A stretch of 64,000 bases of DNA, taken from assembly GCA_964448725.1 (NCBI GenBank), contig CAYVAJ010000001.1:135525-199524 (forward strand), read 5' to 3'. Made by a program: the position numbers and the translations under genes. This DNA is from an uncultured Gammaproteobacteria bacterium. GTDB taxonomy: Bacteria; Patescibacteriota; Microgenomatia; Levybacterales; GWA1-39-11. Below are positions 9,630 through 48,332 of the stretch, piece after piece (positions within the stretch are counted from its first letter, which is position 1; each line of letters starts with the position of its first letter). The notes beneath the pieces were generated by a model. The model was not told the DNA's origin. It worked only from the letters and a program-made list of their open reading frames with translations, and made no database searches.

Positions 9630-9719
9630 CACGTCAAACGTGGCTGTCGTGTTTGACGCGATGCCATAAGACAGGATGAGAAGCCCGCCTCGATGTTCAT
9701 CGGCAGTCCCCTTGGGGGA

Positions 9720-9745: not shown

Positions 9746-9801
9746 AATACACCTTATTAACTCACTCTTATCATATATCGAAACAGTTATATAATAACAA
9801 C

Positions 9802-21672: not shown

Positions 21673-22350
21673 ATGAAAAATATTATTGCTGCCAACTGGA
21701 AATCACATAAGATAACAAGTGAAACACAAAATTTCTTTGAGTATCTTGATCAAAATAAAGAGAGACTTTCTTCTGCAGCAACAGAGATCCTTATCTGTCC
21801 TCCTTTTTCTAGTTTGTTTGTTGCTCGACAATCGATTGACGAGCATGCGCTGCCTATATTACTTGGAGCACAAAATTGTTCGCCTTTTCCTCAAGGAGCA
21901 TATACTGGAGAAATTGCAGCAAATCAGGTTAAAGAGTTTGCCCAGTATGTGATCATCGGGCATTCAGAAAGACGTAATAATTTTCATGAAGATGAAGCTG
22001 TTATTGAACAGAAAGTGAAACAAGCGCGAGATGCAGGATTGCATATTATTCTCTGCGTGCAAGATGAACACGCAGTGGTATATGAAGGTGTTGATACAGT
22101 TGCATATGAGCCAATTGGGGCAATCGGTACAGGAAAGCCTGATGATCCTTCTCATGTTGCTCACGTACTGCAAATACTTCATGAAAAGTATCCGTCTGTA
22201 CGATTACTCTATGGTGGTAGTGTTGATAAAAATTCGATTCATGCGTATACACAAATTTCACAGCTAAACGGCTTTCTTGTTGGTGGAGCAAGTCTAGATG
22301 CTGAATCATTTCTCACACTTATAGCAGCATGCGACACAAAAAACTCTTAA
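21673..22350 (+). CDS. tpiA: Triose-phosphate isomerase
   Basis: IAANWKSHK, IIGHSERR and AYEPIGAIGTGK catalytic motifs. Confidence 0.9.
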   Translation: MKNIIAANWKSHKITSETQNFFEYLDQNKERLSSAATEILICPPFSSLFVARQSIDEHALPILLGAQNCSPFPQGAYTGEIAANQVKEFAQYVIIGHSERRNNFHEDEAVIEQKVKQARDAGLHIILCVQDEHAVVYEGVDTVAYEPIGAIGTGKPDDPSHVAHVLQILHEKYPSVRLLYGGSVDKNSIHAYTQISQLNGFLVGGASLDAESFLTLIAACDTKNS

Positions 22351-23459
22351 TAGCAGCAATTATTGTTGTGATAATTTTTGTGCTTGGATTTAAATATCTT
22401 CGAGCAGGGATTCCTTTCTTATACGAATTATTTGTAAAAAAAGATGAAATCCAACTCAAGCGAGAAGAACAACACTCATTGAATATTTTGCTACTCGGGA
22501 TAGGAGGAGCAAATCATGAAGGACCAAATCTCTCTGATACGATTATTCTTGCGAATATTAACCCCCAAAAAAATGAGGTAAATATGTTCTCTCTCCCTCG
22601 TGATCTTTGGATTCCACAATTAAAAGATAGAATTAATTCTGCCTATGCCTATGGTGAAGAAAAAGATAAAAAAGGCATGTTGTTAGCATCGACAGTTGTT
22701 GAGAAAGTAACAGGCCAGCCAGTAGACTATGTGTTCGTGATCGATTTTTCAGGTTTTGTAAAAGGAGTTGATCATATGGGAGGAATTGATGTTGAAGTTG
22801 CTCGTACATTAGATGATTATGCCTACCCTATTGCAGGAAAAGAGAATGATCTGTGTGGACATACACCTGAGGATGTGGATGCACTTGTTGCAACTGCAGA
22901 GGCAGAGCTGGGATTAGAGGTGTTCCCGTGTCGGTATAAGCATGTTCATGTTGAAAAAGGGCAACAACACATGAATGGACAGCAAGCGCTTGAGTTTGTG
23001 AGATCACGGCACGCGATTGGGGAAGAAGGATCAGATTTTGCTAGAAGTCGCCGTCAACAAGAAGTGATTGCAGCTGTTCGGAAAAAGGCGCTGTCACTGG
23101 GAATTCTGCTTAATCCAGTAAAAGTATTAGGGTTGGTAAATATTGTTCAAGAAAATATAAATACAGATATAAAAAAAGAAGAATATGATGACTTTATCAA
23201 ACTTGCAAATAAAATGGAAAATGTCACAATCAAAAGCCATGTAATTGGTATGGCAGAAAGTGATCAAGAATATGGTCTGCTCATTAACCCAACTCCATCA
23301 GAAGAATATCAGTACAAGTGGGTACTGACTCCTCGAAAAGGGAGTGGGGATTTTTCAGAATTACATGCATATATTGAGTGTGTACTAAAAGGGAATAATT
23401 GTGAAATTACTAAGACAGGAATACGTACTGCCACGGATGCGGCCTCACTAGTACATTAA
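22329..23459 (+). CDS. LytR-CpsA-Psr (LCP) family cell-wall polymer transferase
   Basis: N-terminal TM, then LNILLLGIGGANHEGPNLSDTIILANINP..FSLPRDLW, the LCP core. Overlaps tpiA stop by 22 nt. Confidence 0.85.
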   Translation: MRHKKLLIAAIIVVIIFVLGFKYLRAGIPFLYELFVKKDEIQLKREEQHSLNILLLGIGGANHEGPNLSDTIILANINPQKNEVNMFSLPRDLWIPQLKDRINSAYAYGEEKDKKGMLLASTVVEKVTGQPVDYVFVIDFSGFVKGVDHMGGIDVEVARTLDDYAYPIAGKENDLCGHTPEDVDALVATAEAELGLEVFPCRYKHVHVEKGQQHMNGQQALEFVRSRHAIGEEGSDFARSRRQQEVIAAVRKKALSLGILLNPVKVLGLVNIVQENINTDIKKEEYDDFIKLANKMENVTIKSHVIGMAESDQEYGLLINPTPSEEYQYKWVLTPRKGSGDFSELHAYIECVLKGNNCEITKTGIRTATDAASLVH

Positions 23460-25594
23460 TTAGTAATTTTATAAATTGTTACTGTATTGTTTTTATATAC
23501 AACTTTTCCAAGTGTTTTAAATTTTTCTTCAGATAAATGAGTATATTTTTGTTTTTCAAGGTCGCCAATGTAGACATATTCAATGCCATACTTTCGTACT
23601 AATTCTTGTGTCGTAGCTAGAGAGGATGTTTCATATAGTATCCGTATATCCTCAATTCGCGGTGCAGGAATATCATAGCTTCCTCGCCAAAGCCATTCAT
23701 GCACTGTCCATCCCAGTACTGTGGGAAGACCGGTATTAACAGATATGCGCGCATAATCAGTATATGAATCACCGTGTGATTCAAGAATAATTGGTTGTCC
23801 TGTGATAGTATTGTTCAGCCATGTAATTGCTTCATAATCTGAAGGATACCGATCTTTAAGATAAGCAGTACCATCAAGTCCTTGGTAAAGCGAAAGATTA
23901 TTATAATAGGAATGAATTGCAAAACGCGGATATAACAGTACTAATGCAATGAGTAACACTGATACAGCTGTGAGTACAATATTTTTCTTTGGTTTTATTA
24001 CCGTTGTTGCTACGACTGCACTGACGAGTGAGAGCATAATAAATGCTTGGTAAGTGAGCTTAAACATGGTATTTGCCCGGTAATGATCAGGGTAGATATC
24101 TTTTATATAGGCAAATTCAGGAATAATAATAAGTACTGTCGCTACAAGAGCCAGAATAATACAAAAAACATATGCAGGCTTTATACGATCTTTTGTACTT
24201 TTCCATAGTGCTATAAACAGGGTTATAACAAAAAAATAGAAGAAACCATATAATACCAACAACATCCACCACTCTGATCGTTGACAGTGATCTTGCTCAA
24301 ACAGAAAAGGACCGATTGCACCATAATTTGTTAAAAAATCTGGGGCACACAAGATTCCAATACCTGAGGCAAATGGTTTAAAATGCAGACTAAATGGAAG
24401 AGTAAATGCGAGTGCACTCAGGATAATAAGAATGAATGGTCTCAGACCGTCAAGTACTATATGCGAAAAAAATGATTCATCTGAATATTTCTTCTTCTTA
24501 TTCTTCAAAGCAAACACTGATTTTTTTTGTAGGAGTAAATAGCCAAGTGTTACTCCTGTCAGAATACTATAAATTCCAAAATCAAGGACATTTGTCATAT
24601 ACATGATCGAAAGCAAAAAACCTAGAAAAATCACTTTCAAATAAGAAAGTTTTTTTGTTTGAATAAGAGTAAAAAGAAATGCAATACAGGTGAGGACGAC
24701 AGGAATATCAAATACATGTCCATGGAGATCTGAGACAACAAACGAATAGAGAGGGAATTCGTGAATCGTATTCGGTATAAAACGTGTTGCGTTTGGATAC
24801 CAGTACCCGTTTGATAAAATCCCAAATGGTTTAAAAGCAAGATCCCAGAATGGAACAGGATTTTCTGATGGAACATATGATGCAAAAAATGCATACAGTA
24901 TATGAAGATTTCCAGATACACTAACAAGGAGTGCTGCTAGTGTTGCAGTAAGAATACTTTTAATAATAGAGAGTTTGAGATTTTGTGCTAATGCATAGCC
25001 GATTGAAAAACTTGTTCCAACGGTAAGTGCAAATAACGTAGCAACCATTAAGTTATACGTATAATTTGAGGGAAGAAAAGAAAGTTTTGTCAACACTGCG
25101 GTTATTAAATGTCCAAAGTAATAATAATTAATTGAAAATGGTGGGAACCACATATCTAAAGGAGGAAAGTATTCACTGCGTAAAATCGAGTTAATGAATC
25201 CAAAATCCATAAATTTTTCCAGACCATTAATACTTGGTTCATGACTACGCACATAACTCCATAATGCAAGTGCTACAAAGAAAAGGATCTCTTCGCCAAT
25301 CCATATAAGAAATGTCTTTTTAGAAATAGTTTTTACCTGTTTTTTAAATAAAATAACATTGAGAATTAAGATACTTCCGGTTATCAGTAAAAGAGATGGT
25401 GCCGAAAACGGAAGAACTTTAAGTGTCCCAAGAAGAAACATGATATATGATAAAAGAAGCGCTGCAATAACCTTTGAGAATAAATATCCTTTATCTGCAA
25501 ACGATGCAAAGATTATCATAGTAATAGGTAAGGAGATAAGTCCGAGTAATAAAAGCACTCCGTACCATTGAAAAAATATGGTGATATCAGTCAT
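23456..25594 (-). CDS. Chlor_Arch_YYY (DUF2298)-type large polytopic membrane protein, putative GT-C-like glycosyltransferase
   Basis: 712 aa, more than 12 TM helices. Motif FPPFSINYYYFGH (the YYY signature) at the expected N-proximal position. C-terminal soluble domain. Confidence 0.65.
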   Translation of the reverse strand: MTDITIFFQWYGVLLLLGLISLPITMIIFASFADKGYLFSKVIAALLLSYIMFLLGTLKVLPFSAPSLLLITGSILILNVILFKKQVKTISKKTFLIWIGEEILFFVALALWSYVRSHEPSINGLEKFMDFGFINSILRSEYFPPLDMWFPPFSINYYYFGHLITAVLTKLSFLPSNYTYNLMVATLFALTVGTSFSIGYALAQNLKLSIIKSILTATLAALLVSVSGNLHILYAFFASYVPSENPVPFWDLAFKPFGILSNGYWYPNATRFIPNTIHEFPLYSFVVSDLHGHVFDIPVVLTCIAFLFTLIQTKKLSYLKVIFLGFLLSIMYMTNVLDFGIYSILTGVTLGYLLLQKKSVFALKNKKKKYSDESFFSHIVLDGLRPFILIILSALAFTLPFSLHFKPFASGIGILCAPDFLTNYGAIGPFLFEQDHCQRSEWWMLLVLYGFFYFFVITLFIALWKSTKDRIKPAYVFCIILALVATVLIIIPEFAYIKDIYPDHYRANTMFKLTYQAFIMLSLVSAVVATTVIKPKKNIVLTAVSVLLIALVLLYPRFAIHSYYNNLSLYQGLDGTAYLKDRYPSDYEAITWLNNTITGQPIILESHGDSYTDYARISVNTGLPTVLGWTVHEWLWRGSYDIPAPRIEDIRILYETSSLATTQELVRKYGIEYVYIGDLEKQKYTHLSEEKFKTLGKVVYKNNTVTIYKITN

Positions 25595-26148
25595 AGTCCT
25601 TTAATGTCTAAAGCAGTAGTAATTTTTTGTATGTTCTCAAATGGAATATATCGCTTTGATATCTTACTGGGATTAATCCAATAGAATTGGATTGTTGGAT
25701 TATTCTTGGCAAGGTACATAAGCAGATCAAGGTCGTCATCGACAAAATGGGTGAGATGGAGTTTTTTTATCATTCTGTCCTTAAAAATATGAGGCTGTTC
25801 ATTTTGGAAGTTAAAATGTATTTCTTGAAAATATTTTTTAAGATTATATTTGTTAAGCCAATGATTTGTTCGTTTCTCTAAAAATCCAAATCTGCCTGAT
25901 ATAAGAAAAATAGGAGTATTTTTCTTTGAAAGTTTTTTTACTACTTCTATATTCTCATTCATTGGATGGCGAAAGGGAGGAAAATGGGAGAGGATTCTAA
26001 TTTTTTGTTCAATAGATCCTGGAAAGCGGTATTTAAGTGTTTTACTGCGTTTTTTATAAATCCAATTAATAAATAAATCTGGTATAAGTGGTGGATAATT
26101 CACTAATACTTTATCAAAATCAAAGCCAATTCGAACCTTCTTTTTCAT
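25591..26148 (-). CDS. HAD-superfamily hydrolase-like protein
   Basis: Motif I IGFDFDKVL (DxDx[TV]), later ISGRF and terminal FVDDDLD consistent with HAD motifs I-IV. Weak overall. Confidence 0.45.
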   Translation of the reverse strand: MKKKVRIGFDFDKVLVNYPPLIPDLFINWIYKKRSKTLKYRFPGSIEQKIRILSHFPPFRHPMNENIEVVKKLSKKNTPIFLISGRFGFLEKRTNHWLNKYNLKKYFQEIHFNFQNEQPHIFKDRMIKKLHLTHFVDDDLDLLMYLAKNNPTIQFYWINPSKISKRYIPFENIQKITTALDIKGL

Positions 26149-27191
26149 ACAAATCGATTGAGGAGATTAAGTAATTTAAAATTCCAAATTGTCCTGTGAG
26201 TTGTCCCAGTTGCTCCAATAAATTCTTCTCTGTGTTTTTTATACCAATCATAACTTTCAATCAAAATTTCTTTATTTGATTTTGTTGGTTTGAAACGTAA
26301 ATACTTTTGCGCTTTTTCTATTGAAACATATGAATCTACTGGTAGTGTTTTATAATGCCAAGCAACAATTGGAGAAAGATTAAGCTTTTCAAGTATGGAA
26401 AGGATCGCTTGTGAAGCTTTTACGGGGAAACTTACAATTTTTGATTGAGATTTTGCATGTGTTATCAATGCACCAAGGTCTTTTGCCCACGTATCAAATC
26501 TATCAGTTCCGACATTAAATATTTCTCCGCTTTTTCTTGAAAGGAGTGCTGATTCAACTGCTTGACAAAGATCTGTTACTTCAAGTAACTGATATACATT
26601 GTGTCCTTTTCCCAGCATAAATACTGGTTTATTTGAATAAATTGCTTCAAACCATAATGTGAAAACACCAAGTCTCTCAGGACCTAAAAATGTTTTAGGA
26701 CGTAAAATATTTACTTTTAGTCCTTTTTTATGATACTGCAGACAAAGTCGTTCTCCTAACTGCTTTGATTCACCATAATGGCCGATTGGACTAACAGGAT
26801 CTGTCTCTTTTTCAGGAAGATGTTGTGGTACTCCATATAATGCAGTGCTGGAAATAAATACCAGCCGTTTTACTTTTTCTTTCAATGAAACAGCAAGGAC
26901 ATTTTTTGTTCCAGTGACATTAATATCCATAATAGTCTTACGGTCATGATGAATAGGAAGTGCTGCAGCTGCATGAACAACATAATGAGGTTTATGTTTT
27001 TTAAAAATTTCTGAAAGCTTTTTTTTATTGCGAATATCAATTGATTCGACTATTGCTTTTCCAACAAGATCCTTTGCAGTAAGAGGTTCTATATCAAGCA
27101 AAACTACATGATACTTTTTTTTGAGAAAAAATCGGGCTAAATATACTCCTAAAAATCCGGTTCCGCCGGTAATTAGTACAGTTCTCTGCAT
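26145..27191 (-). CDS. NAD-dependent sugar epimerase/dehydratase (extended SDR)
   Basis: Rossmann TGGTGFLG at N-terminus, catalytic YGESK (YxxxK). Confidence 0.85.
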   Translation of the reverse strand: MQRTVLITGGTGFLGVYLARFFLKKKYHVVLLDIEPLTAKDLVGKAIVESIDIRNKKKLSEIFKKHKPHYVVHAAAALPIHHDRKTIMDINVTGTKNVLAVSLKEKVKRLVFISSTALYGVPQHLPEKETDPVSPIGHYGESKQLGERLCLQYHKKGLKVNILRPKTFLGPERLGVFTLWFEAIYSNKPVFMLGKGHNVYQLLEVTDLCQAVESALLSRKSGEIFNVGTDRFDTWAKDLGALITHAKSQSKIVSFPVKASQAILSILEKLNLSPIVAWHYKTLPVDSYVSIEKAQKYLRFKPTKSNKEILIESYDWYKKHREEFIGATGTTHRTIWNFKLLNLLNRFV

Positions 27192-27196
27192 GCATG

Positions 27197-28744
27197 TTAT
27201 TGTACAATTTCCCCAATAACAAAAGCAATATCACCGTTTGGGTAATAAATCGTTTGTTGAATAGCAAGCTGAATTTCAGGATGATTGGATAGATAATAAG
27301 GTGTTACTGCAAAGAGTTGTTTGAAATGTTTTTTTGCTAAAGTGTGTGGTTCACCAATTTTACAATTATAACATTCATATGGTGCATAAAATTTAAAAAA
27401 TATTTCAGGTGCATTAAATGAACTTTCCATGATTGTTTCATCATACTGTTTTTGATTATCTGCAAAATATGTGACGACTTCACGTGCACCATATTGCCAT
27501 CCCCAGAAGTTTGATGAATACTGTGGATATTCAAAAAAATATTTTTGCATATACTGAAAAAATGAAATACTTCCGATTACACAAAAGAAACACAAAATTA
27601 TAAAACGGGTAATCCTCGTGTTTCTTAGAATAGATTCTATTCCGAGAATCCCTATAGAAGAAATAATTTGAAACGGAATGACGCCTATTATGGATCGTGT
27701 TGCTTGTGCACTTTGGTCAAGAGTAAACATGCTTCCTACCGGATAGAGAAGAAGCCAAACTGTTAAAACACCAAATATCTTTTTGTTTTTTATAAAAAGA
27801 TAGAGAATACCAGAGAAAAGCAACGGTAATTGAAAAAGATATAACTCACCAAATCCTCGTACTGAGTGACGGGTAATAAATTGCCCAGGCATATCGATAT
27901 CACCTTTCGTAAAAAGAAAGTCATAGGAAAAATGACTAAGATAATTATGTGTAATATGATTGACAATACTTTGATTATGGGAGTGATTAGAAAAAATACT
28001 AACTTGATTCCACCTGTTGGAACCAGTGTCTATTAGGTGTAATAGCATAGGAGTGAGTATAAATGAAAGTAAGATAATGCATAGCACAGTAACTTTTTTG
28101 TAGGTGAAGAAAAATTGGTAATAAAGAATGGCAAGTCCTATTCCAAATAAAGGAATAAAAATACGGGCTGGAAAATATGAGTACATAGCAATTGCAAATA
28201 AAGTAATGCTCACAAGCATAAGAAAAGGTTTGTTTTGTGATTTTAAAAAAACATATAGTCCCAGTGTTGTAAAAAAAACAAATGCTGCTAACCCTTCAAG
28301 AGATACTCTACTGATATGAATATGCCATGGTGATATTGCAAGTAGTACTGCTGAAATTAATGATAAAGAATGTGCGTAATGTGATTTTTTTTGAAATATC
28401 TCTAGAGAAAGTAGGTATACGGCAATAATACCTAATACTCCATAGAATACAGAAACGAGTCGTATAGAAAATTCATTGAGTCCAAACAGCGTGATAAATG
28501 GAATAGTGCTATATGTTTGAATAGGGCTTTTAAATTCACCGAAGGCTTGAAAGAAAAGTGGAAGGTGATTTCCGTGCTCATCGTTCCCGGTAGCTAAGAT
28601 AGAAAATGCATTTACTCCAATTGACGCTTCGTCACAAAAAAAACCAGCTGGATTGGTAGAGAGATTCCATATCCGTATAACAAAGGCAAAGCAGAGAACT
28701 ATTAATACCGCGAATATTCCATAATTATATTTGGCTATTCTCAT
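27197..28744 (-). CDS. GT-C membrane glycosyltransferase, ArnT/PMT (GT39/GT83)-like
   Basis: Polytopic. First periplasmic loop FFCDEASIGVNAF carries the DE catalytic motif in the position seen in ArnT/PMT enzymes. Confidence 0.7.
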   Translation of the reverse strand: MRIAKYNYGIFAVLIVLCFAFVIRIWNLSTNPAGFFCDEASIGVNAFSILATGNDEHGNHLPLFFQAFGEFKSPIQTYSTIPFITLFGLNEFSIRLVSVFYGVLGIIAVYLLSLEIFQKKSHYAHSLSLISAVLLAISPWHIHISRVSLEGLAAFVFFTTLGLYVFLKSQNKPFLMLVSITLFAIAMYSYFPARIFIPLFGIGLAILYYQFFFTYKKVTVLCIILLSFILTPMLLHLIDTGSNRWNQVSIFSNHSHNQSIVNHITHNYLSHFSYDFLFTKGDIDMPGQFITRHSVRGFGELYLFQLPLLFSGILYLFIKNKKIFGVLTVWLLLYPVGSMFTLDQSAQATRSIIGVIPFQIISSIGILGIESILRNTRITRFIILCFFCVIGSISFFQYMQKYFFEYPQYSSNFWGWQYGAREVVTYFADNQKQYDETIMESSFNAPEIFFKFYAPYECYNCKIGEPHTLAKKHFKQLFAVTPYYLSNHPEIQLAIQQTIYYPNGDIAFVIGEIVQ

Positions 28745-30456
28745 AGATCAATGGTTGTTGGCGAAAAATTTATATTTTTAAATATCAAAACTTTGGGGTG
28801 ATCATATACAGTAAATGATTCATCTGCTGATTGGTCATCAATTGCAATATTGAGAATCGGGATGGTAGGATAATTGGTAAACTCAGCAACTTTTTCAAAT
28901 CCTAAATCTCCTGCAAATAACTGGTGATAGTATTGAGCTGTAGTAGGATAACATCTGCCAAGAGGAAGTTTATTGCAATCAGTCAATTTTTGAAGGGGTG
29001 TGTACAATCGATTGGAAGAGAGAATTATATAGTCTGTTTCCTGAAGATTTTCTTTCATCAATTGCCATTTTTTAACAGTATCTGGTTCATACAGGGGATA
29101 TTCGATAATATGGTAACGCTCAATACCGTAGAGTGGAAGACGATCATCCCAGTGCTCTACTCCTAGATTTTTTTCAGAGTCAATATTTTGATGTATCCAT
29201 TCAGAGGCGGCAACACGGGGATGTATGGAGAAATATATTTGTATAAATGATACTGGCCATAGTATAACGAGAAGAAAAAGAATAAAACTAGTGAATATCT
29301 TAACTGAGAGAAATGGAAGTCTTCCAATAAAAGGAAAAAATGTTTTTACGAGAGCAATACCAGCAAAAAGTGCGAGCAATGGATACAATGGAAGCATATA
29401 TCTCATCCACCCTACTGCAAAACTTCCAACAATAGCAAAATAGACGGCACAAAAAAAGATAATGCTCATAAATAAAACAGAATCTTTGTTTTTTATTCCT
29501 AGTTTAATAAACACAATACTGCCGACAAGAGAAAGAATGCTGATAGCTGGTCCCAGTCCCCAGAAGAATACGTTTTGTATCTCATACAAATACGGAATTT
29601 TTCCGACATACTGCAATGTATAAGGGAAAGTAAACGCACTTCTTGTCATTTCTGATTGAGCAGTAGTATCACTGATAAATGAAGAAAAATCTATCAATGC
29701 GTATGGTTGGCAAATAATTGTTGTAATACAAGCAAGAAGTAGAAAAGTAAGGGTGTTTTTTATGAGTTGTGACCAGTATTTTAAGGAAGTAATTGTTTTT
29801 AACTTTTTAGTATTTAATGAATGCAGCGGTAAAAGTAAGAAAATAATACCTAACGGTAATAATAGTGGTGCTGCGCTAATTTTTGTTGATATTGCACAAC
29901 CAAAACTTACAGCTGATGCAATAAGATATTTTTTTTCGTGTGTGGCAAAAAACTTAAGTCCACAGTACAATGTTCCCATCATAAAAAATGTAAGTAACAC
30001 ATCAACAACATAAAAATGAGAAGTTTGGATAGGAAGAACACTTATTGCATAAATAAATGCAGCAGCATACCCAACATACTTTGAAAATAAGAATCTCCCA
30101 AAAAGAAAAACAAGCACCATCGTTCCAACATCTACAAAAGCAGACAAATTTCTACCCACCATGAGCTGATACATGAAATTTTGGAAATCAGGATTATTAA
30201 GTGCTGCAAGCTGAATAAAGAATTTCAATAGATATATTGGCAGGCTTCCATAGGCAAAAAAATGTGGGTTAAGAGGGCTTTGTATTGAAAGGAATTCAGA
30301 GATAGATTGTGGAAGTGAAATATTTCCTATTATCATTACAATTGCCCGTTCATCAGGATGCAAACTATATCCATGATCCCAGTAGATTGATAGTACCCTC
30401 AGGAGAAAGGCAAGAGCGCAAAGAAGAAAAAGAATAATAAATGATTTAACGTTCAT
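28741..30456 (-). CDS. GT-C-like membrane glycosyltransferase paralogue (HPDER motif)
   Basis: Polytopic, 571 aa. First loop YSLHPDERAIV. Paralogous to 30446..32110 (shared HPDER, PHFFAYGSLPIY). C-terminal soluble domain. Confidence 0.6.
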   Translation of the reverse strand: MNVKSFIILFLLCALAFLLRVLSIYWDHGYSLHPDERAIVMIIGNISLPQSISEFLSIQSPLNPHFFAYGSLPIYLLKFFIQLAALNNPDFQNFMYQLMVGRNLSAFVDVGTMVLVFLFGRFLFSKYVGYAAAFIYAISVLPIQTSHFYVVDVLLTFFMMGTLYCGLKFFATHEKKYLIASAVSFGCAISTKISAAPLLLPLGIIFLLLPLHSLNTKKLKTITSLKYWSQLIKNTLTFLLLACITTIICQPYALIDFSSFISDTTAQSEMTRSAFTFPYTLQYVGKIPYLYEIQNVFFWGLGPAISILSLVGSIVFIKLGIKNKDSVLFMSIIFFCAVYFAIVGSFAVGWMRYMLPLYPLLALFAGIALVKTFFPFIGRLPFLSVKIFTSFILFLLVILWPVSFIQIYFSIHPRVAASEWIHQNIDSEKNLGVEHWDDRLPLYGIERYHIIEYPLYEPDTVKKWQLMKENLQETDYIILSSNRLYTPLQKLTDCNKLPLGRCYPTTAQYYHQLFAGDLGFEKVAEFTNYPTIPILNIAIDDQSADESFTVYDHPKVLIFKNINFSPTTIDL

Positions 30457-32110
30457 GATTTATTTTGAATATAGATACTGTCGGTCTGTCAAATACATTT
30501 GCAGTATCCTCTACTCCATATACTGGATCGCCAAGGTACAGTATTTTACAAAAAAAATCACAAGGTGTTTGATAAACCTGAGTAAAACGGGTGCTTGATA
30601 TCAGTGAAGAATAGAACATATGTCCATGAGGAAAATTCTGAGGATTATCAAGTCGTGATTTTATGATCCGTTGACTGGGAAGGATAATTATATCGTGATT
30701 TGATACTTCATGTGAGAGTGTATTTGCAAGATCTGGATTGTGTTCAAGATCATAAAAATTAAATAAAGAGATATGAGTAAATTTTTCATTAAAAGGCATA
30801 ATTCCGAGATCATAAACCTCAGAGAGTATTTTTGTTTCTTGAGAAAATATTTCATTTGCATAGATTGCAGCAGTAGTTCGTGTGTCTGGCTCTATATAGA
30901 CAGTTTTCAGTAATGCTGCTGTCCAGAGAACGCTTGATACCATTGCTACTCCTGTAATTAAGTAATGAATATTTTTAGTGAGATGTTTTTTTGAAAGCAC
31001 TGAAAGAGACAGTGCAACAATAAGGTATATAACAGGAAGCAGAGGAACAAAATAGCGAGTCCATTTTACAAAAAATACAAGTTGCGGAATTAATAAGAAT
31101 AGAAAAAAGAAAATGAGTAACGAAGTTTTGGAGTCTCTTTTTTTTAATTCGTATAAGAGAATAATAATAAATGCTGGTACAAAAATAGCAGCGATGAATG
31201 GATTGAGTAAATAAGGCAGTACATATAGTGCCTGATATATTCCGGGAATAGTATCGGTAAAGGTACCTGTATAAAAAACAGGAAGTGTTCCTAATGCGAC
31301 AGCAGATTCATATTGCATTGATCCACGAAATGCAGACCAGTCAAGAAAGGAAAATGGATTTGTGAGTATAAATATACCAATACAGATTGCTGCAAGTATT
31401 CCTGTGTTTGTACCTATTTTTTTAATAAGAGTAAGACGATTCCTTTTCGTTTTACTTGATCTTTTATTTTTTATTACTGTCAGGCTTACCAGTATTGGCA
31501 GTGGGAAAAGTGCAAGTGAAGATATTTTGATTGAAATAAGTATGCCAAGTGTTATACAAGTAAAGAGAAAATAACGATGGTGAGATGTTTTTAGATAGAG
31601 GACTAATTGATAAAGCAGTAATAATGAAAAGAATGTAAGATACATCTCAAAAGTACCAAAATGTGCGTATTGGATAAGTCCGACACTCAGAGTTGATAAA
31701 AAAACAGTAATAAGAGCGAATTTCTTGGAGATATAGTGAAGGGCTGTGAAATAGAGAAGAGCTAGGGTGCCAATACTTAGTCCAGCTGAAAAAAATCGTC
31801 CAATAATAATGGCTTGTTCAAATGATACATTCCAAATATCATTCTGCTGAAAAAGAAAGGTCATGCTATTAATAATGACGCCAGTGAAATAGATACTGTA
31901 AATTGGCAGACTTCCATAGGCAAAAAAATGTGGATTTAATTGTTCAGGTGCATAGAGCTGACTAATTGATGATGCAATATTGCGTTCATCAGGATGAAAA
32001 TAAAAAGGAGCACCCCAATTGAGATCGTAAAATCGCAGAAACACTGCTACTGCTAATAAAAAGATAAGTATGAAGTGACTGTTTTTTATATATGTAAAAA
32101 AAGACTTCAT
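30446..32110 (-). CDS. GT-C-like membrane glycosyltransferase paralogue (HPDER motif)
   Basis: YFHPDERNIASS and PHFFAYGSLPIY shared with the upstream paralogue. Polytopic, 554 aa. Confidence 0.6.
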   Translation of the reverse strand: MKSFFTYIKNSHFILIFLLAVAVFLRFYDLNWGAPFYFHPDERNIASSISQLYAPEQLNPHFFAYGSLPIYSIYFTGVIINSMTFLFQQNDIWNVSFEQAIIIGRFFSAGLSIGTLALLYFTALHYISKKFALITVFLSTLSVGLIQYAHFGTFEMYLTFFSLLLLYQLVLYLKTSHHRYFLFTCITLGILISIKISSLALFPLPILVSLTVIKNKRSSKTKRNRLTLIKKIGTNTGILAAICIGIFILTNPFSFLDWSAFRGSMQYESAVALGTLPVFYTGTFTDTIPGIYQALYVLPYLLNPFIAAIFVPAFIIILLYELKKRDSKTSLLIFFFLFLLIPQLVFFVKWTRYFVPLLPVIYLIVALSLSVLSKKHLTKNIHYLITGVAMVSSVLWTAALLKTVYIEPDTRTTAAIYANEIFSQETKILSEVYDLGIMPFNEKFTHISLFNFYDLEHNPDLANTLSHEVSNHDIIILPSQRIIKSRLDNPQNFPHGHMFYSSLISSTRFTQVYQTPCDFFCKILYLGDPVYGVEDTANVFDRPTVSIFKINHER

Positions 32111-32148
32111 AATGAGAAATTAAATTCAGGGTTAATTAGCATAATTAG

Positions 32149-33438
32149 TTACTTTTCTTTATCGATCATTTCAGCAATTTTTTGTCCCAGTTCTACTGCA
32201 TAATTTGTTCCTCGATCCCAGGGATATACTTGCTGCATATTTGCTAAAAAAATTCCCTCAAGAGGTGTGGTAAATGATGGGATCATTTTTGAGTAGTTTG
32301 CAGGTACAATTGGTTGAGCAAAGGGCGCACGAAATACTTCATAATCAATAAGATTATTTGCATAGTCTGGGTTTATTTTTTTCAAAAATGGATCATATAA
32401 TTTGAGAAGTTGTTCATTAGATTGAGTAAATTTCATATCATCAACAGGCATGTAATTGCCAACATAGACAATATGTTCATTATTGTAGTTTTTTTTATTC
32501 ATAAAATTAGTGTGTTCTACCAATACCATAATATTTGCCTCAGTTGTACAGATGCTCAACCAATAAGTACCATCAGTAAGGAAGGGCTTTTTTAGGCGAA
32601 GTATCATATTCGTGGCAGCAAGCCCTTGTAGTTTGGCAAGATTTTTTGTGTATGTTGAGGGAAGCTGTGGAGTGACTTTTGTAAAAAGATGAGTAGGTAA
32701 GGTAACAATAACTTTATCAAATGTTTGTAATTCCTTTTTCCCTTGTCGTTCAAATTCCAGTGTGGGTTTAGTGTTATTTAGAGTTATTTTTTTTATTTCA
32801 CTCCCATAATAAATAGTTCCTCCTCCATTGATAATTTTTTTTGATAAATGTTGAGCAAATGGTAAAAATCCTCCTTTTGGATAGGCAAGTGATGTAGTAC
32901 GTTTTTTTATACGTGCCCAAAACCAAACAAGTGAAATGTCATCAACATACTTGCTAAGTTTATTAATCAGCTGAGGTTCCCAGATGAGTTTATATGCTTT
33001 TTCCCCAATAAGTTGAGGAAGAATTTTTGTTGTTTTAATATTCTCGAGTATTCTCCAAAATGGATTAAAGCGGAACAGAAAAGCAAATACGGCAGCCATC
33101 CGAAAACGGTCAAAAAGAGATAATAAAGGAAAGGTAAGGAGTTTGAGTGGTGAATCAAGCTGGTAAGTAGTATTATTAATATAGACTGATGTTTTTGGAC
33201 GATTGGTTATAACAGGATAGTCTGTTTCTTTTGCAAGAGTAAGAACTGAATCATCATTGGTAAACCAATGATGATAGTGCTGCTCTAGCGTCCACTCCCA
33301 TTTCTTTTCTGAATAGCCCAATGCAAGACCACCTGGTTGAAAATCTTTTTCAATCAGTACTACTTCATGGCCCTTTTTTTGTAATGCAAATCCGGCAGCA
33401 AGACCAGTAAATCCTGCACCAATAATTCCTACTTTCAT
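32149..33438 (-). CDS. FAD/NAD(P)-binding oxidoreductase (amine-oxidase/desaturase-like fold)
   Basis: N-terminal dinucleotide-binding KVGIIGAGFTGLAAGFAL...VLIEKDFQPGG. Confidence 0.75.
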   Translation of the reverse strand: MKVGIIGAGFTGLAAGFALQKKGHEVVLIEKDFQPGGLALGYSEKKWEWTLEQHYHHWFTNDDSVLTLAKETDYPVITNRPKTSVYINNTTYQLDSPLKLLTFPLLSLFDRFRMAAVFAFLFRFNPFWRILENIKTTKILPQLIGEKAYKLIWEPQLINKLSKYVDDISLVWFWARIKKRTTSLAYPKGGFLPFAQHLSKKIINGGGTIYYGSEIKKITLNNTKPTLEFERQGKKELQTFDKVIVTLPTHLFTKVTPQLPSTYTKNLAKLQGLAATNMILRLKKPFLTDGTYWLSICTTEANIMVLVEHTNFMNKKNYNNEHIVYVGNYMPVDDMKFTQSNEQLLKLYDPFLKKINPDYANNLIDYEVFRAPFAQPIVPANYSKMIPSFTTPLEGIFLANMQQVYPWDRGTNYAVELGQKIAEMIDKEK

Positions 33439-33441
33439 AGC

Positions 33442-34824
33442 TTACCCAAGGATAAAAAGTAAAGTGGCTCCTGTTACGATCAGTATAACAGACCCAAATG
33501 TTATAAGCAGTGTAGAAACACTTCCAGGTGGCGTTGGAGTTATTGTAATAATTGGTTGTATTGTAGGTATTGGAGTGGCTGTAGGAATTACAGTAGGTAT
33601 TGCTGTAGGAATTACAGTAGGAGTAGGGGTAACTGTCTCTGTCACTGTTGGAGAGGGCATAACTGTTGTTGTAGGAGAAGGCTCTGCTGTTGGAGTAGGT
33701 GTGCGTGTTGGAGTGAGAGTAGCTGAGGGTGTTGCAGTCTCTGCTACTTGTGATCCTGCAGGGAAAATTAAAAAATCATGAGTTACTGCTTTTGTTACAC
33801 CATAAGAATCTTTTGCTTGCGCAGTAATGGTATTTTTTCCTTGAGGTAGTGGACTATCTGGTCTGAACTGCCACTGTCCTGTTGAACTGGTAGTAACAGT
33901 AGTTGTAAGATTGCTTGGTTCAAGAAAAAGAGAGACGGTTGTTCGAGGAGCTGCAGTTCCCTTGATCAGTGGTTGATCATCAATAGTTGATTCTCCAATC
34001 ACTGGATTGGTAATACGTACTGTTGATTGTATAGTACTTGGAGTTGGAATTGTTAATTGTGCCTCACTTGTTGCTTCTGGTGTATCTGGAGCGATTACCG
34101 AAAAATCATAATTTTGGGAAAGAGTAAGTGGAGGAATTTCAAAAATATTTTCATAATTAACGGTTGCTCGTGATGCAAGATCAGCACTATATGCGGCAAT
34201 AGTAAATGTGGTGTGTCTAGTAAAATCAACATATTTTGAAAGGTCACGTGATTTTAATCGTGATATGTCAAAAATGTACTCCCCCTCACCATTAGTTAGT
34301 ATACTCAGTATTTGTGAATCAGTACTTTGTAATGTGACTAAAACATTTGTACCTATTGACCCATCAGTATTAATTATTTTTCCTGTTACCGGAAGCGTGT
34401 TTATCTCGGTATCTTCCAGTAAAGGTGCAGTTGTTACCCTATATGGCTCTTCGTTGTCCCGAAAGGTTTTTCCTTCAAGTAATATTACATACTCATACTC
34501 TGTTGATGGACTGAGATTGGGGATAGTTATCCGATGTGTTGTTCGCGCTTCTGGAGATGAGTTTTGAAAAAAGACAGAGGTAGGAAGTGTTGATCCTGAT
34601 ACTTGAACACCGGCAACGGACTCTGTTTTAGTAGTAAAAGCAATGGTAAAGGTATCGTGTGCAAGATCAGTGACATATATATTTTGTGGTTGAGTGTCAG
34701 AGGAGGCTTGTCCTACAGTTCCTGTTTGTTGTACCACAAAATACCGAGTCAGAAAAATACTTCCTGCAATAAGAAGCAGAGCAAAAAGAGTTGGTATGCG
34801 GATTTCCCATAGTGGTTTTTTCAT
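33442..34824 (-). CDS. Cell-surface protein: N-terminal signal/anchor, beta-rich domains, Pro/Thr-rich linker and C-terminal TM anchor
   Basis: N-terminal hydrophobic segment. Long TPTPT/PTV repeat region. C-terminal VSTLLITFGSVILIVTGATLLFILG. Confidence 0.65.
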   Translation of the reverse strand: MKKPLWEIRIPTLFALLLIAGSIFLTRYFVVQQTGTVGQASSDTQPQNIYVTDLAHDTFTIAFTTKTESVAGVQVSGSTLPTSVFFQNSSPEARTTHRITIPNLSPSTEYEYVILLEGKTFRDNEEPYRVTTAPLLEDTEINTLPVTGKIINTDGSIGTNVLVTLQSTDSQILSILTNGEGEYIFDISRLKSRDLSKYVDFTRHTTFTIAAYSADLASRATVNYENIFEIPPLTLSQNYDFSVIAPDTPEATSEAQLTIPTPSTIQSTVRITNPVIGESTIDDQPLIKGTAAPRTTVSLFLEPSNLTTTVTTSSTGQWQFRPDSPLPQGKNTITAQAKDSYGVTKAVTHDFLIFPAGSQVAETATPSATLTPTRTPTPTAEPSPTTTVMPSPTVTETVTPTPTVIPTAIPTVIPTATPIPTIQPIITITPTPPGSVSTLLITFGSVILIVTGATLLFILG

Positions 34825-34827
34825 ACG

Positions 34828-35145
34828 TTATATAGGTTCTTCTATTTGATTGGATGATTCCTCAACCTCAGCACTGATTGAACTCTCTTGTATCTCAGTA
34901 TTAGGTGGAAGAATATACTCCGCAGTTTCAGAGAGATCAATTGGGACTGAAATTCGACTACCTACTTGTTCCATTGTCTGAGTATCAAAAGAGGGAGGAA
35001 TAGGGGTTGTATACTTGCTTGTATCTTCTGAAATCGTTGGACTAGTGATACTAAAGTATAGTGTTGCTCCAATCCAAGTTACCACAACAAAGGTTGTTAA
35101 GATTGCTCCATAGTATAAGTGTTTTAATACTGTATTACTGTGCAT
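34828..35145 (-). CDS. Small single-pass membrane protein, hypothetical (pilus-assembly-operon member)
   Basis: 105 aa, one TM (ILTTFVVVTWIGATLYF), acidic C-terminus. Start overlaps the upstream gene stop. Confidence 0.45.
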   Translation of the reverse strand: MHSNTVLKHLYYGAILTTFVVVTWIGATLYFSITSPTISEDTSKYTTPIPPSFDTQTMEQVGSRISVPIDLSETAEYILPPNTEIQESSISAEVEESSNQIEEPI

Positions 35146-35755
35146 AGAAAAAGACCCTTCCCGTTATCGTTACTTCTGATCGGCTTGTATCTGTTCGGCC
35201 GGTACCTATTGTGTCAATGCTTAATATTCTGTCAAAATTTATAACCTCTGATATAAAGGTATTAATATCTTCTGTACTTCCTATGAGATTCATATTGAGA
35301 GTATACGAATATAATGGTGGCGTTTTTTTTGCTGTAGGAAAATACTCAATTGCTCCGGTATTAATTCCGGCAATAAAAAGGCTGTTTCTTTGTGCAAGAA
35401 CCTCTATTTTTCTAATAACTTCAGGAATTTGTGCTGTTGCTGGTATTGCCTCATTAACTCGTGTAATTTGTGAGGCATTTTGTGCATACAGAGAGTCCAG
35501 TGTTTGTAGGTTTTGTAATTTAGTTGAGAGATTGTCATAAACTAATTGTTTGTCCGCATATTGCTTACGGAGTGTTGAAATAGTTGAAAGAGTTGGCATA
35601 ATTGCAAAAAGACCAAAAAAAGATACGGTAAATAATGTCAAGGTAAGATAAAGGTATGCAACATATTTTTGCTGTTCATGAAATTTACGTAATTCAGGGT
35701 ACTTAGTACTATATACCTTATAAAGTTCTTTAAAATTTAATTTTGGTTTATTCAT
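35135..35755 (-). CDS. PilO-like type IV pilus assembly protein
   Basis: Short cytoplasmic N-terminus, one TM, coiled-coil then periplasmic domain. Size and topology as PilO. Translationally coupled to the PilN-like gene. Confidence 0.5.
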   Translation of the reverse strand: MNKPKLNFKELYKVYSTKYPELRKFHEQQKYVAYLYLTLTLFTVSFFGLFAIMPTLSTISTLRKQYADKQLVYDNLSTKLQNLQTLDSLYAQNASQITRVNEAIPATAQIPEVIRKIEVLAQRNSLFIAGINTGAIEYFPTAKKTPPLYSYTLNMNLIGSTEDINTFISEVINFDRILSIDTIGTGRTDTSRSEVTITGRVFFYAQ

Positions 35756-36387
35756 AAGAGAGTATTAGCTTCTGGTTCTGAGTTTTCTGTTTCTTCTGTA
35801 AGTTCAGCAAGTGTAATATTTAGTTTAAATAAAATACCTGCATCAGTACTGGTAATCTCATCAATACTAATGCTTGTGACGTAATCATTTGCCTTGAGAT
35901 CTTCGACAAAATTGTGTATTGAAAAGATTGACGATGCTACTCCATTGAGAGATATAATATTTTTATTTACATTAAGATTATTTGCAGAAAATATTCCTCT
36001 ATTTGTAGTATCAAGAACTTTATTCATAACGTCTATTTTTGCGTCAGTATCGAGTTTAATAGTTTGTATCATTGATAATTTATCTTGTACTGCTCTAAAT
36101 TGATTTTCTTTTTCTTCATTACTTCTTATGAGCAAAACTTGTGTGGCAATTTGATCATTAATATCGGCAATTTGTCGGTCAATGACAAATCGATAAAAAA
36201 GCGCAGATAATGCAACCAGCTCAGTAAGTACAATAACAATACGCCCAATATTAATTGCCCATTTATAGAAAAGGCTTCCCGTTGATTCTTTTGGTCTTCC
36301 TGATAGATTAATGGAAATGTTTTTTTTCTCTTCACCAGAAGAGTTCCCTTGTGAGGCATCTTTTTGTACTCCTGAATCGGCAGGCAT
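35752..36387 (-). CDS. PilN-like (fimbrial assembly) protein
   Basis: Cytoplasmic N-terminal stretch, single TM (IVIVLTELVALSALFY), coiled-coil (DINDQIATQVLLIRSNEEKENQ) and periplasmic domain, the PilN architecture. Confidence 0.5.
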   Translation of the reverse strand: MPADSGVQKDASQGNSSGEEKKNISINLSGRPKESTGSLFYKWAINIGRIVIVLTELVALSALFYRFVIDRQIADINDQIATQVLLIRSNEEKENQFRAVQDKLSMIQTIKLDTDAKIDVMNKVLDTTNRGIFSANNLNVNKNIISLNGVASSIFSIHNFVEDLKANDYVTSISIDEITSTDAGILFKLNITLAELTEETENSEPEANTLL

Positions 36388-36456
36388 AGTAACTATCAGT
36401 GTAGTGGATTTTTGACACGTTTGTCAAAGATAATTTGAGGGGAAGAAGAGCTTTTT

Positions 36457-36732
36457 TTACGCACTCGCTTGAGTTTTTGCTTTGCTTACTTTTGCGGGCT
36501 TGATTGTTTTTGCAATTTGTGACTTTAATCGTGCTGCTTTATTGCTATGCAATAAGTTCTTTTTTGCTGCTTTATCCACAATAGAATATGCTTCTTTGAG
36601 TACTGCTATGTCTGCATTGCTTTTTTTGACTTGTCGCAGAGTATCTCGAAGCTCTTTGCGGAATTCATCATTCCGTATTTCCCGTACACGATCTTTACGA
36701 AGTTTTTTAATTGCTGATTTAATAACTGGCAT
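36457..36732 (-). CDS. rpsT: 30S ribosomal protein S20
   Basis: MPVIKSAIKKLRKD..AKKNLLHSNKAARLKSQ is the bS20 signature. Confidence 0.9.
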   Translation of the reverse strand: MPVIKSAIKKLRKDRVREIRNDEFRKELRDTLRQVKKSNADIAVLKEAYSIVDKAAKKNLLHSNKAARLKSQIAKTIKPAKVSKAKTQASA

Positions 36733-46541: not shown

Positions 46542-46543
46542 GT

Positions 46544-47995: not shown

Positions 47996-48332
47996 CACCG
48001 TACTTTCTGATAATATCATTAAAATATCTACGGGTGTTTCATTGATATTACTGATATTTATAACAATACTCATTGCGTTTTTCTATCAAAAATTACCTCC
48101 TTATATTCCTTTTTTTAATAGCTTGCCGTGGGGAACTGAAAGACTATTTTCCTCAGTTGTTGTAGTATTTCTTCCAGTTGTTTTTTTGTCGGTTATAATC
48201 GTCAATACTATGATTAGTGCATATCTCTATGCAAGCCATGCATTAATTGCCCGTATGATCTCATTTAATGGATTATTAGTTATTATTCTTGGATTTCTTG
48301 CGTATTTACAAATTGTACTACTCGTATTGTAA
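47979..48332 (+). CDS. Small 3-TM membrane protein, hypothetical
   Basis: 117-aa ORF, overlaps neighbours at both ends. Confidence 0.4.
   Translation: MKNVFNTVLSDNIIKISTGVSLILLIFITILIAFFYQKLPPYIPFFNSLPWGTERLFSSVVVVFLPVVFLSVIIVNTMISAYLYASHALIARMISFNGLLVIILGFLAYLQIVLLVL

Follow-up and report, generated by a model that had tools for sequence, protein, structure and literature searches.

A flavoenzyme-YYY gene pair in a very probable lipid-linked glycosylation locus of Levybacteria-type bacteria

What is made by a block of eleven genes that begins with two pilus alignment proteins, passes through an anchored surface protein and ends with a giant membrane protein? The block in question lies on the minus strand between positions 36387 and 23456 of a 64-kb stretch of DNA from contig CAYVAJ010000001.1 (~36% G+C; hereafter the window, whose numbering is used throughout). 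The first-pass annotation took it for one self-contained system that glycosylates and displays a surface protein. We find that two modules make up the block. The first, module 1 (36387-33442), encodes PilN and PilO together with a small bitopic protein and a Pro/Thr-stalked surface protein. Module 2 (33438-23456) contains a flavin adenine dinucleotide (FAD) oxidoreductase, three glycosyltransferases of the GT-C type (GTC1, GTC2 and GTC3), an extended short-chain dehydrogenase/reductase (SDR), a HAD phosphatase and a DUF2298/YYY protein. Of the two, module 2 alone is met again, between different flanks, in other lineages of the Candidate Phyla Radiation (CPR), and it is very probably a GT-C glycosylation locus supplied by lipid-linked donors. 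Glycosylation of this dependence is an already known kind.

The closest relatives of the window proteins come from Candidatus Levybacteria and Patescibacteria genomes, and for this reason we regard the source as a Levybacteria-type CPR bacterium. One genome per GTDB species was scanned with the FAD protein, which gave 80 Levybacteria loci at 55-71% identity; 70 of these had sufficient upstream sequence, and 59 had a complete FAD-to-YYY segment. Intermediate low-G+C lineages (L169, L171, L172, L174 and L175) have FAD proteins 40-48% identical and altered flanks. The distant sample consisted of 80 high-G+C metagenome loci of FAD homologues (L081-L160). Among GTDB records whose gene content and synteny are of the Levybacteria type, many (L003, L004, L006 and others) bear the title "uncultured Gammaproteobacteria bacterium", and others are entered as Methylomirabilota, Sulfotelmatobacter or Saccharimonadales; the titles are apparently mistaken. 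A "Saccharimonadales" FAD homologue considered as an outgroup was dropped, because its locus shows Levybacteria synteny.

In nearly all 80 Levybacteria loci the genes follow the same order: S20, PilN, PilO, a small open reading frame (ORF), the stalk protein, FAD, a variable segment and YYY, then a LytR-CpsA-Psr (LCP) gene and tpiA in the opposite direction and uvrD in the original one. Median identity is 60% for SDR, 59% for FAD, 49% for YYY, 44% for GTC1/2 and 30-31% for PilN, PilO and the stalk protein. Between FAD and YYY lies a cassette whose content changes. GTC2-type genes are its most widespread members (45 of the 59 complete loci), and GTC1-type genes occur in 33, GTC3-type in 14, SDR in 28 and HAD in 43. 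Every one of the 59 has at least one extra GT-C-type protein in this segment, counting a gene fusion in L009 described below. Other cassettes hold PMT_2 and multi-membrane-spanning proteins, GT4 enzymes, methyltransferases and a cyclase. A recurrent cassette protein of ~545 aa is a YYY paralogue of reduced length (hhalign 96.9%, E 2e-10, 478 columns). The idea that some Levybacteria are without a GT-C cassette was abandoned, as the apparent gaps hold this YYY-like paralogue and PMT_2 proteins missed by BLAST. Constant flanks around a variable set of glycosyltransferases are typical of surface-glycan loci on which diversifying selection acts.

It is instructive to trace module 2 in lineages where the flanks have changed. 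In L171, FAD is followed by UbiA, a GTC1-type gene and, further on, a YYY-like gene, an SDR on the opposite strand, a GTC2-type gene, HAD and YYY. In L172 the order is tpiA, FAD, YYY-like, an unassigned gene, HAD and SDR, and in L169 it is uvrD (reversed), tpiA, FAD, YYY-like, HAD, GT4 and methyltransferase; both have a GTC2-type gene on the opposite strand. In L175, FAD is followed by a YYY-like and a PMT_2 gene, with a true PMT (PMT and PMT_4TMC domains) and an LCP gene convergent. SDR is co-located with FAD in L171, L172 and L174, and HAD orthologues adjoin YYY or the ~545-aa YYY-like gene in L169, L171 and L172. In the P0256 locus, FAD stands after GT2, GT4, a PIG-V-like GT-C and an unassigned gene, and before a Wzx-type flippase and another GT2. 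Because these genes are kept together in lineages with changed flanks, we consider FAD plus a YYY-type GT-C, with HAD, SDR and GTC1/2-type genes, to be the conserved functional unit. The first-pass annotation, which gave the FAD enzyme no role, had missed the FAD-YYY pair; its expectation of a co-conserved cluster is borne out for module 2 in other CPR lineages and fails for PilN and PilO outside Levybacteria.

The glycosyltransferases are assigned as follows. GTC2 (28741..30456) matches PMT (PF02366, 51.6 bits against a cutoff of 22.7) and PMT_2 (50.5 bits). GTC1 (30446..32110; ~9-11 transmembrane segments, TMs) falls just below the PMT_2 cutoff of 26.1 (24.8 bits), and GTC3 (27197..28744) just above it (26.5 bits). 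All three have 9-11 hydrophobic segments, and their GT-C assignment comes from the PMT_2/PMT sequence match only. That they are three paralogues is clear for GTC1 and GTC2 (25% identity, E 1e-36); GTC3, a distant paralogue, is kin to both at the profile level only (hhalign 99%, E 1e-18 to 1e-20 against the two families). After TM1 both GTC1 and GTC2 have the motif HPDER, in which D41 and E42 of GTC1 (n=41 sequences) and D35 and E36 of GTC2 are invariant. The corresponding CDE motif of GTC3 has an invariant D, with E in 9 of 10 sequences. Pfam finds no MIR or PMT_4TMC domain in GTC1-3, and an Agl23-type identity was rejected, since they score only 32.3, 34.5 and 17.2 bits on TIGR03663, far below its cutoff of 126. 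Elsewhere in the window a further PMT_2 GT-C of 458 aa (17316-18692, minus strand) lies directly downstream of a FemAB-family peptidyltransferase gene (18693-19718, minus strand); with it the window encodes at least six GT-C-type proteins.

The YYY protein (23456..25594) is a full-length member of the Chlor_Arch_YYY family (TIGR03662, 508 bits against a cutoff of 300, residues 5-710; PF10060, E 4e-96) with ~14 hydrophobic segments. Its AlphaFold2 model is well defined (pLDDT 87, pTM 0.91), and the C-terminal outer domain resembles the globular domain of AglB. All significant Foldseek matches in the PDB are GT-Cs: DPY19, STT3, AglB, PglB, AftA, ArnT and Pmt4. The best E-values are to DPY19, STT3, AglB and PglB, and the highest TM-score is to the arabinosyltransferase AftA (0.46-0.50). 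As TM-scores are low, YYY appears to be a distinct GT-C branch. D34 after TM1 and the motifs INYYYFGH, HEFP and DLHGH are invariant; INYYYFGH, which includes the YYYxG signature of the family, is so in 41 of 41 sequences. Sequence searches of YYY, GTC2 and GTC3 against solved structures gave nothing useful, and our literature search found nothing on DUF2298/YYY. From the GT-C fold we infer that the GT-Cs and YYY would use polyprenyl-phosphate-linked donors on the outer face of the membrane.

The second constant partner is the FAD oxidoreductase (32149..33438) of the PRK07233 family (NF005560, 376.5 bits against a cutoff of 252, residues 1-428), a family without an assigned function. Its AlphaFold2 model (pLDDT 85) has the amine-oxidase/phytoene-desaturase/protoporphyrinogen-oxidase fold, with Foldseek matches to protoporphyrinogen oxidase, phytoene desaturase and monoamine oxidase at TM-scores of 0.7-0.8; the second-best NCBIfam match is HpnE. 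A sequence search against solved structures found no close relative, and our literature search found nothing on this flavoenzyme family, which is large (627 cluster representatives at E <= 1e-30). A role like that of UDP-galactopyranose mutase was rejected: only N-terminal Rossmann matches were seen (E ~0.007), and no such mutase appears among the top 50 folds. The enzyme is sometimes part of a larger protein. In L009 (8031-10970) one ORF of 979 aa joins FAD (1-425) in frame to a GTC2-type GT-C (437-965); seen once, it may be either a true fusion or the result of a lost stop codon. Other homologues are fused to a flippase-like LPG_synthase_TM domain (P0389), an unassigned multi-TM domain (P0326) or a methyltransferase (P0251).

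Two further enzymes of module 2 may tailor the sugar. The extended SDR (26145..27191; PF01370, 152 bits), of the NAD-dependent epimerase/dehydratase/reductase type, carries GGTGFLG and YGESK motifs, and its best solved relatives are GalE-type enzymes. We propose it as keto-reductase partner of the FAD enzyme or as a nucleotide-sugar epimerase. The HAD-like phosphatase (25591..26148) was recognized by its visible motifs (DFDKV as motif I, VDDD as motif IV), its HAD_2 and LNS2 matches being weak and below the Pfam cutoffs. All other family calls of the first-pass annotation also hold, by Pfam and NCBIfam profiles. At E <= 1, Pfam gave no match for the N-terminus of P0326, for the 420-, 487-, 544- and 556-aa cassette proteins, or for the window proteins of 483, 117, 105 and 196 aa.

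How closely are the two modules joined in the window? The ORF listing agrees with the earlier description of eleven consecutive minus-strand genes that overlap or abut. The ten junctions from PilN to YYY measure -4, -11, +3, +3, +38, -11, -4, +5, -4 and -4 nt. Across the 80 related genomes the gap between the stalk gene and FAD has a median of -4 nt, as does that between HAD and YYY, where 91% of gaps are <=20 nt. The true first gene of the same-strand run is rpsT (S20, 36457-36732), 69 nt before pilN; in relatives this gap has a median of 58 nt and is never <=20 nt. It contains the top-scoring promoter-like match of the region (TTGACA-18-TACACT, 36398..36427, minus strand). Promoter and terminator scans of the region gave counts no better than shuffled sequence, and so the site before pilN is only a hint. 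Judged by its gene packing, the block is probably a single, tightly packed and co-transcribed envelope operon. It is flanked by MurJ (36848-38494, plus strand), which is divergent from it, and by an LCP glycopolymer phosphotransferase gene (22329..23459, plus strand; PF03816, 123 bits; TIGR00350), which is convergent and whose stop overlaps that of YYY by 4 nt. An LCP gene is convergent after YYY in 47 of the 59 complete loci and again in L175.

If the transferases depend on lipid-linked sugars, then we can ask: Where could the donor come from? The description of the block as self-contained fails here, because it has neither a lipid-sugar synthase nor a flippase; the best candidate for donor synthesis lies in another operon, 13 kb away. 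This second glycan operon, on the plus strand, runs from TatD through a GT2 (45042-46541), a GT-C-like protein of 483 aa (46544-47995) whose ~500-aa Levybacteria orthologues carry PMT_2, a 117-aa protein (47979-48332) and a WecA/MraY-like phosphotransferase (48289-49395) to a UbiA-family homologue of decaprenyl-phosphate phosphoribosyltransferase (49392-50336), an order conserved in Levybacteria L161-L165. The UbiA protein passes the equivalog cutoff of NF008978 (211 against 207 bits) and falls just below that of NF008977 (225 against 234 bits), and NCBI names a Levybacteria homologue decaprenyl-phosphate phosphoribosyltransferase. In L171 the gene directly after FAD is an orthologue of this UbiA gene (259 bits).

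In Corynebacterineae this UbiA enzyme (Rv3806c) begins the pathway to decaprenyl-phosphate-arabinofuranose (DPA). There, polyprenyl-phosphate-ribose-5-phosphate is formed and dephosphorylated, oxidized by the flavoenzyme DprE1 and reduced by the SDR DprE2; GT-C arabinosyltransferases then use the product, and the completed polymer is attached by an LCP enzyme. A similar sequence of steps can be proposed for the window, with UbiA, HAD, FAD, SDR, the GT-Cs and LCP as the respective candidates. The UbiA protein, whose family is assigned, would make polyprenyl-phosphate-ribose-5-phosphate from phosphoribosyl pyrophosphate, and the HAD protein would remove the 5-phosphate. The PRK07233 flavoenzyme would then oxidize the lipid-linked sugar and the SDR reduce it, giving an arabinofuranose-like donor, so that the two would be analogues, not homologues, of DprE1 and DprE2. 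After flipping of the donor, the GT-Cs with the DE motif and YYY would transfer sugars on the outer face, most likely to Ser/Thr in the Pro/Thr stalks of the operon surface protein and of a second surface protein. The second operon (45042-50336) would serve donor and primer synthesis. As a whole, a DPA-like donor pathway feeding extracytoplasmic GT-Cs that glycosylate Pro/Thr-stalk proteins is put forward tentatively. A donor derived from a polyprenyl-phosphate-pentose has, taken by itself, not quite an even chance. The company of UbiA, HAD and SDR favours a DprE1-like action of the flavoenzyme on the lipid-linked sugar, an action we still hold to be somewhat doubtful, and the same doubt applies to a DprE1/E2-like epimerase formed by FAD with the SDR.

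The candidate acceptor encoded in the block is a surface protein of 460 aa (33442..34824). It consists of a signal/anchor TM, FN3-like and Ig-like domains (Big_13, CarboxypepD_reg), a Pro/Thr stalk of ~90 aa, the motif TPPGS and a C-terminal TM. The stalk has a Pro/Thr fraction of 0.62-0.72, and the protein ends as TPTPPGSVSTLLITFGSVILIVTGATLLFILG. Nearly all of 80 homologues keep the stalk and the C-terminal TM, at a median identity of only 31%, and some have IPKTGS or VPKTGS before the final TM, an arrangement that resembles an LPXTG sorting signal. The window protein itself, with TPPGS and a TM, lacks a basic tail; among homologues the motif reads IPKTGS, VPKTGS, LEKTGS or LPNAG. No sortase was found among the scanned ORFs of the window. 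The second surface protein (40794..41912, minus strand) has a PKD domain, a PT/PS linker and a tail of LAPPGS plus TM, ending as LAPPGSIGTAIGIGGAVILTIIGGVLLFLL, and is a second candidate acceptor. Their matching tails suggest that both carry one kind of sorting signal and that glycosylation may have more than a single target, and the presence of the second Pro/Thr linker suggests a general rather than a dedicated system.

A Pro/Thr-rich anchored protein is encoded directly upstream of FAD in 70 of 70 Levybacteria loci. In L174 the same place is taken by a 403-aa Pro/Thr-rich protein ending in LEKTGS and a TM, and in L175 by a 161-aa protein with little beyond a signal, a Pro/Thr run, LPNAG and a TM; a further gene for a Pro/Thr-linker protein precedes the latter. 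The globular parts of the L174 and L175 proteins are unrelated to that of the window. As only 2 of 51 window proteins are as Pro/Thr-rich as the stalk protein, chance would seldom place such proteins in this slot in three lineages (~1-2%, a crude estimate). This recurrence is the best evidence for the stalk protein as a glycosylation substrate, the role which the first-pass annotation gave it; a wall polysaccharide, attached by the LCP ligase, is the main rival acceptor, and that the Pro/Thr-stalk proteins are the acceptors is held here as a tentative view. The link between Pro/Thr richness and cassette type is weak and not decisive: stalk Pro/Thr content is slightly higher with a GTC1/2 cassette (median 0.53 vs 0.475, p = 0.02, phylogeny ignored). 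Gene calling in such regions is easily misled. Long phantom ORFs encoding "GVGV" repeats occur on the reverse complement of Pro/Thr-coding DNA, for example at 33464-33781 (plus strand) of the window and at 1408-1776 (minus strand) of L175, where the public annotation places the gene on the phantom strand and overlooks the true 161-aa protein. Such calls suggest that Pro/Thr-rich proteins may be under-annotated.

The remaining genes of module 1 point to pili. The PilN-like type IV pilus alignment protein (35752..36387) has a marginal PF05137 match (24.7 bits against a cutoff of 22.8) and one TM at 47-65, and the PilM-binding INL motif at its N-terminus is conserved in >=70% of 46 homologues. 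The PilO-like alignment protein (35135..35755), also with one TM, matches PF04350 at 37.5 bits against a cutoff of 22. PilN and PilO domains, bitopic topology and the INLLP-type motif of PilN are present, as in the PilMNO alignment subcomplex. Between PilO and the stalk gene lies a 105-aa bitopic protein (34828..35145; TM 15-33, acidic C-terminus) with no family match. All relatives have a small ORF here, in a gap of ~325 nt where BLAST misses it. Of 70 Levybacteria loci, 69 have PilO and 68 have PilN, with translational coupling to the other operon genes. Neither lies next to FAD/YYY in the non-Levybacteria lineages examined. Neither the scanned ORFs of the window nor the loci that were separately annotated with Pfam showed a pilin, PilM, PilB or PilC; BLAST screening of the 80 Levybacteria loci, with window proteins as the only queries, was blind to pilM and other pilus genes.

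Several observations weigh against the proposed model. The flavoenzyme has the amine-oxidase/phytoene-desaturase fold and not that of DprE1, which belongs to another flavoprotein family; to our knowledge, characterized members of the former fold do not oxidize sugar hydroxyls. FAD is universal, but SDR is found in only 28 and HAD in 43 of 59 loci, so that a role common to all cassettes fits better than a sugar-specific epimerase. UbiA adjoins FAD in one examined lineage only and in none of the distant loci L081-L160. Among the latter, an LPG_synthase_TM gene comes before FAD in 36 loci and a UDP-glucose/GDP-mannose dehydrogenase gene after it in 18, and YYY or a GT-C lies nearby in few, for example L089, L100 and L127. 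On the acceptor side, no Pro/Thr-rich protein stands next to FAD in L169, L171 or L172, and runs of Pro and Thr ahead of an LPXTG-type signal are a usual kind of spacer across the wall. A polysaccharide linked to peptidoglycan would account for the LCP, WecA-like and MurJ genes no less well. Finally, synteny within Levybacteria alone is no proof of functional coupling, because the housekeeping flanks LepA, MurJ, S20, tpiA and uvrD are equally syntenic. LPG_synthase_TM itself was considered as FAD partner in the window and discarded: it is the usual neighbour of distant homologues, but neither the window nor any of the 80 Levybacteria loci has it.

Some of these points lead to other explanations. 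The PRK07233 enzyme might saturate or desaturate the isoprenoid chain of the polyprenyl carrier needed by YYY and the GT-Cs, leaving the SDR as an ordinary nucleotide-sugar epimerase. Its fold (TM-scores up to 0.80 to the phytoene desaturase/protoporphyrinogen oxidase group) and its HpnE match suggest a hydrophobic, largely isoprenoid substrate; it is universal where the sugar-tailoring genes vary, its distant homologues pair or fuse with flippase-like LPG_synthase_TM, and the best E-value matches of YYY are dolichyl-carrier enzymes. However, UbiA right after FAD in L171 and the recurrent trio of HAD, SDR and FAD fit a sugar pathway, and we know of no carrier-modifying enzyme in this family; we regard carrier modification as a minority possibility, on a level with action on the sugar. 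Of similar standing is a wall glycopolymer, in which the GT-Cs would extend a polysaccharide primed on polyprenyl-diphosphate-GlcNAc by the WecA-like enzyme and LCP would ligate it to peptidoglycan, as for mycobacterial arabinogalactan, the stalk protein, PilN and PilO being merely co-transcribed envelope neighbours. The convergent LCP gene, overlapping YYY, in 47 of 59 loci and its return in L175, the divergent MurJ, the joint operon of WecA-like, GT2, GT-C and UbiA genes, the top TM-scores of YYY to arabinan-priming AftA and the resemblance of cassettes with GT4 and methyltransferases to polysaccharide loci all agree with it. Yet it leaves unexplained the Pro/Thr-rich anchored proteins upstream of FAD in three lineages, and by E-value the best matches of YYY are the protein-modifying DPY19, STT3, AglB and PglB. 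The LCP adjacency does not separate the two models, because LcpA of Actinomyces oris, an LCP enzyme, glycosylates the sortase substrate GspA (PMC6381275).

The head of the operon raises the question of whether type IV pilins are modified by the GT-Cs, as by TfpW. In favour of this, both alignment proteins are genuine, PilN keeping its INL motif; they are coupled to the operon in 68-69 of 70 loci, and a DPA-type UbiA gene is present. The pilin and the PilM, PilB and PilC genes, however, were not found in the ORFs and loci named above, and PilN and PilO are absent beside FAD/YYY in every non-Levybacteria lineage examined, which makes pilin glycosylation very unlikely. There may also be no functional link between the two halves, as compact CPR genomes pack unrelated genes together and the block could be kept by regional synteny. 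The equally conserved housekeeping flanks, the occurrence of module 2 without module 1 in L169, L171 and L172 and the uninformative promoter and terminator scans all speak for such packing. The median gap of -4 nt between the stalk gene and FAD over 80 genomes and the unrelated Pro/Thr-rich anchored proteins in the same slot in L174 and L175 speak against it, and we consider it fairly unlikely.

How does the glycosylation model compare with described systems? The DPA pathway of Corynebacterineae is similar in the homologous UbiA phosphoribosyltransferase above its equivalog cutoff and in the equal number and order of the assignable steps (phosphatase, flavin oxidase, NAD(P)H reductase). Multiple GT-Cs, a YYY protein with top TM-score to AftA, and WecA-like and LCP genes nearby extend the likeness. 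In contrast, the flavoenzyme here has the amine-oxidase/phytoene-desaturase fold, the SDR is extended and GalE-like, with no DprE2 model among the matches listed, and the phosphatase is of the HAD type and not the PAP2 type (the position of Rv3807c in the mycobacterial set). Flavoenzyme and phosphatase have no homology to their mycobacterial counterparts, and the SDR is of another SDR class. The host, too, is an ultrasmall CPR bacterium without mycolic acids. The scanned ORFs of the window gave no family match for a DprE1-type flavoenzyme or a DprE2-type short SDR, and no Pfam or NCBIfam match for Emb/Aft was found in the window, the likeness of YYY to AftA being at the fold level only. As the features of DprE1, DprE2 and Emb/Aft are missing from the window, we do not count the CPR module as a member of the DPA pathway; by analogy, it may work like one. 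A literature search found nothing on a DPA-type pathway in CPR bacteria.

Other likenesses are partial. In the TIGR03662/TIGR03663 pair of Chloroflexi and Archaea, as here, a full-length YYY member stands beside PMT_2-type GT-Cs and a Rossmann enzyme; unlike in that pair, the window GT-Cs reach only 17-35 bits on TIGR03663. A DUF2298-PMT2-Rossmann-PMT2 cluster is described in Chloroflexi bacterium 44-23 (PMC8756737, appendix), and we found no description linking YYY to a PRK07233 flavoenzyme, HAD and UbiA. PMT O-mannosylation in eukaryotes and Actinobacteria shares the PMT/PMT_2 domains, the DE motif in the first outer loop, the expected polyprenyl-phosphate-sugar donor and Pro/Thr-rich acceptor regions. 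It differs in that the window GT-Cs have near-threshold scores and no MIR or PMT_4TMC domain, and the block has no polyprenyl-phosphate-mannose synthase. TfpW reportedly arabinosylates group IV pilins of Pseudomonas aeruginosa via the DPA pathway, with type IV pilus genes beside a GT-C and a DPA-type donor as the points of likeness; unlike there, no pilin gene is present here, and outside Levybacteria PilN and PilO do not accompany the glycosylation genes. The LcpA-GspA-SrtA system of A. oris (PMC6381275) likewise has an LCP gene beside glycan-assembly genes and a surface protein with a C-terminal sorting-type signal, but the TPPGS motif here is degenerate, no sortase is seen in the window, and the described A. 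oris pathway is without GT-C enzymes. The haloarchaeal S-layer glycoprotein also has a Thr-rich stalk, there O-glycosylated, followed by a C-terminal anchor, and the YYY family is common to Archaea; in contrast to the haloarchaeal Agl22/Agl23 system (PMC11182771 for Agl23), the host here is bacterial, the GT-Cs are not Agl23, and PGF-CTERM and archaeosortase are absent.

Several other genes of the window deserve mention. A VirD4/TrwB-like coupling protein (6622-9024, minus strand), a TraX protein (9676-10485, plus strand) and a small gene at ~61045-61341 (plus strand), upstream of 61350 and with a weak T4SS_pilin match seen in L167, may be pieces of a type IV secretion or conjugation system. 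A tRNA-Ile with anticodon TAT (UAU), an anticodon uncommon in bacteria, lies at 6480-6556 (minus strand). A 778-aa protein (53833-56169, plus strand) has a C-terminal dockerin type I domain and an SdrD_B-like region, and another protein (15885-16745, plus strand) joins an ATP-cone, an Mrr_cat restriction-endonuclease-like domain and an AF1548-like C-terminal domain.

Our comparison gives two families, the PRK07233 flavoenzyme and YYY, a concrete context as a conserved core pair within lipid-linked glycan assembly. In one lineage the pair lies beside the gene for the enzyme that opens the polyprenyl-phosphate-ribose/arabinose pathway, and in three lineages beside genes for Pro/Thr-stalk anchored proteins. 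That FAD and SDR replace DprE1 and DprE2 non-orthologously, making polyprenyl-phospho-arabinofuranose or another epimerized lipid-linked pentose, and that YYY is at the same time the O-glycosyltransferase of Pro/Thr stalks, is quite unlikely as a joint claim. If true, it would provide functions for two widespread families and place a mycobacterium-like donor in ultrasmall episymbionts. It would also mean that the DprE1/DprE2 step, a major drug target in mycobacteria, has been solved by enzymes a second time and independently. If the model fails, a clean GT-C glycan locus with conserved flanks and a variable cassette still stands. CPR bacteria (Patescibacteria) live attached to host cells, and our literature search found almost nothing on their surface chemistry. 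If the model is true, the host or phage specificity of these bacteria would probably depend in part on hypervariable surface glycans.

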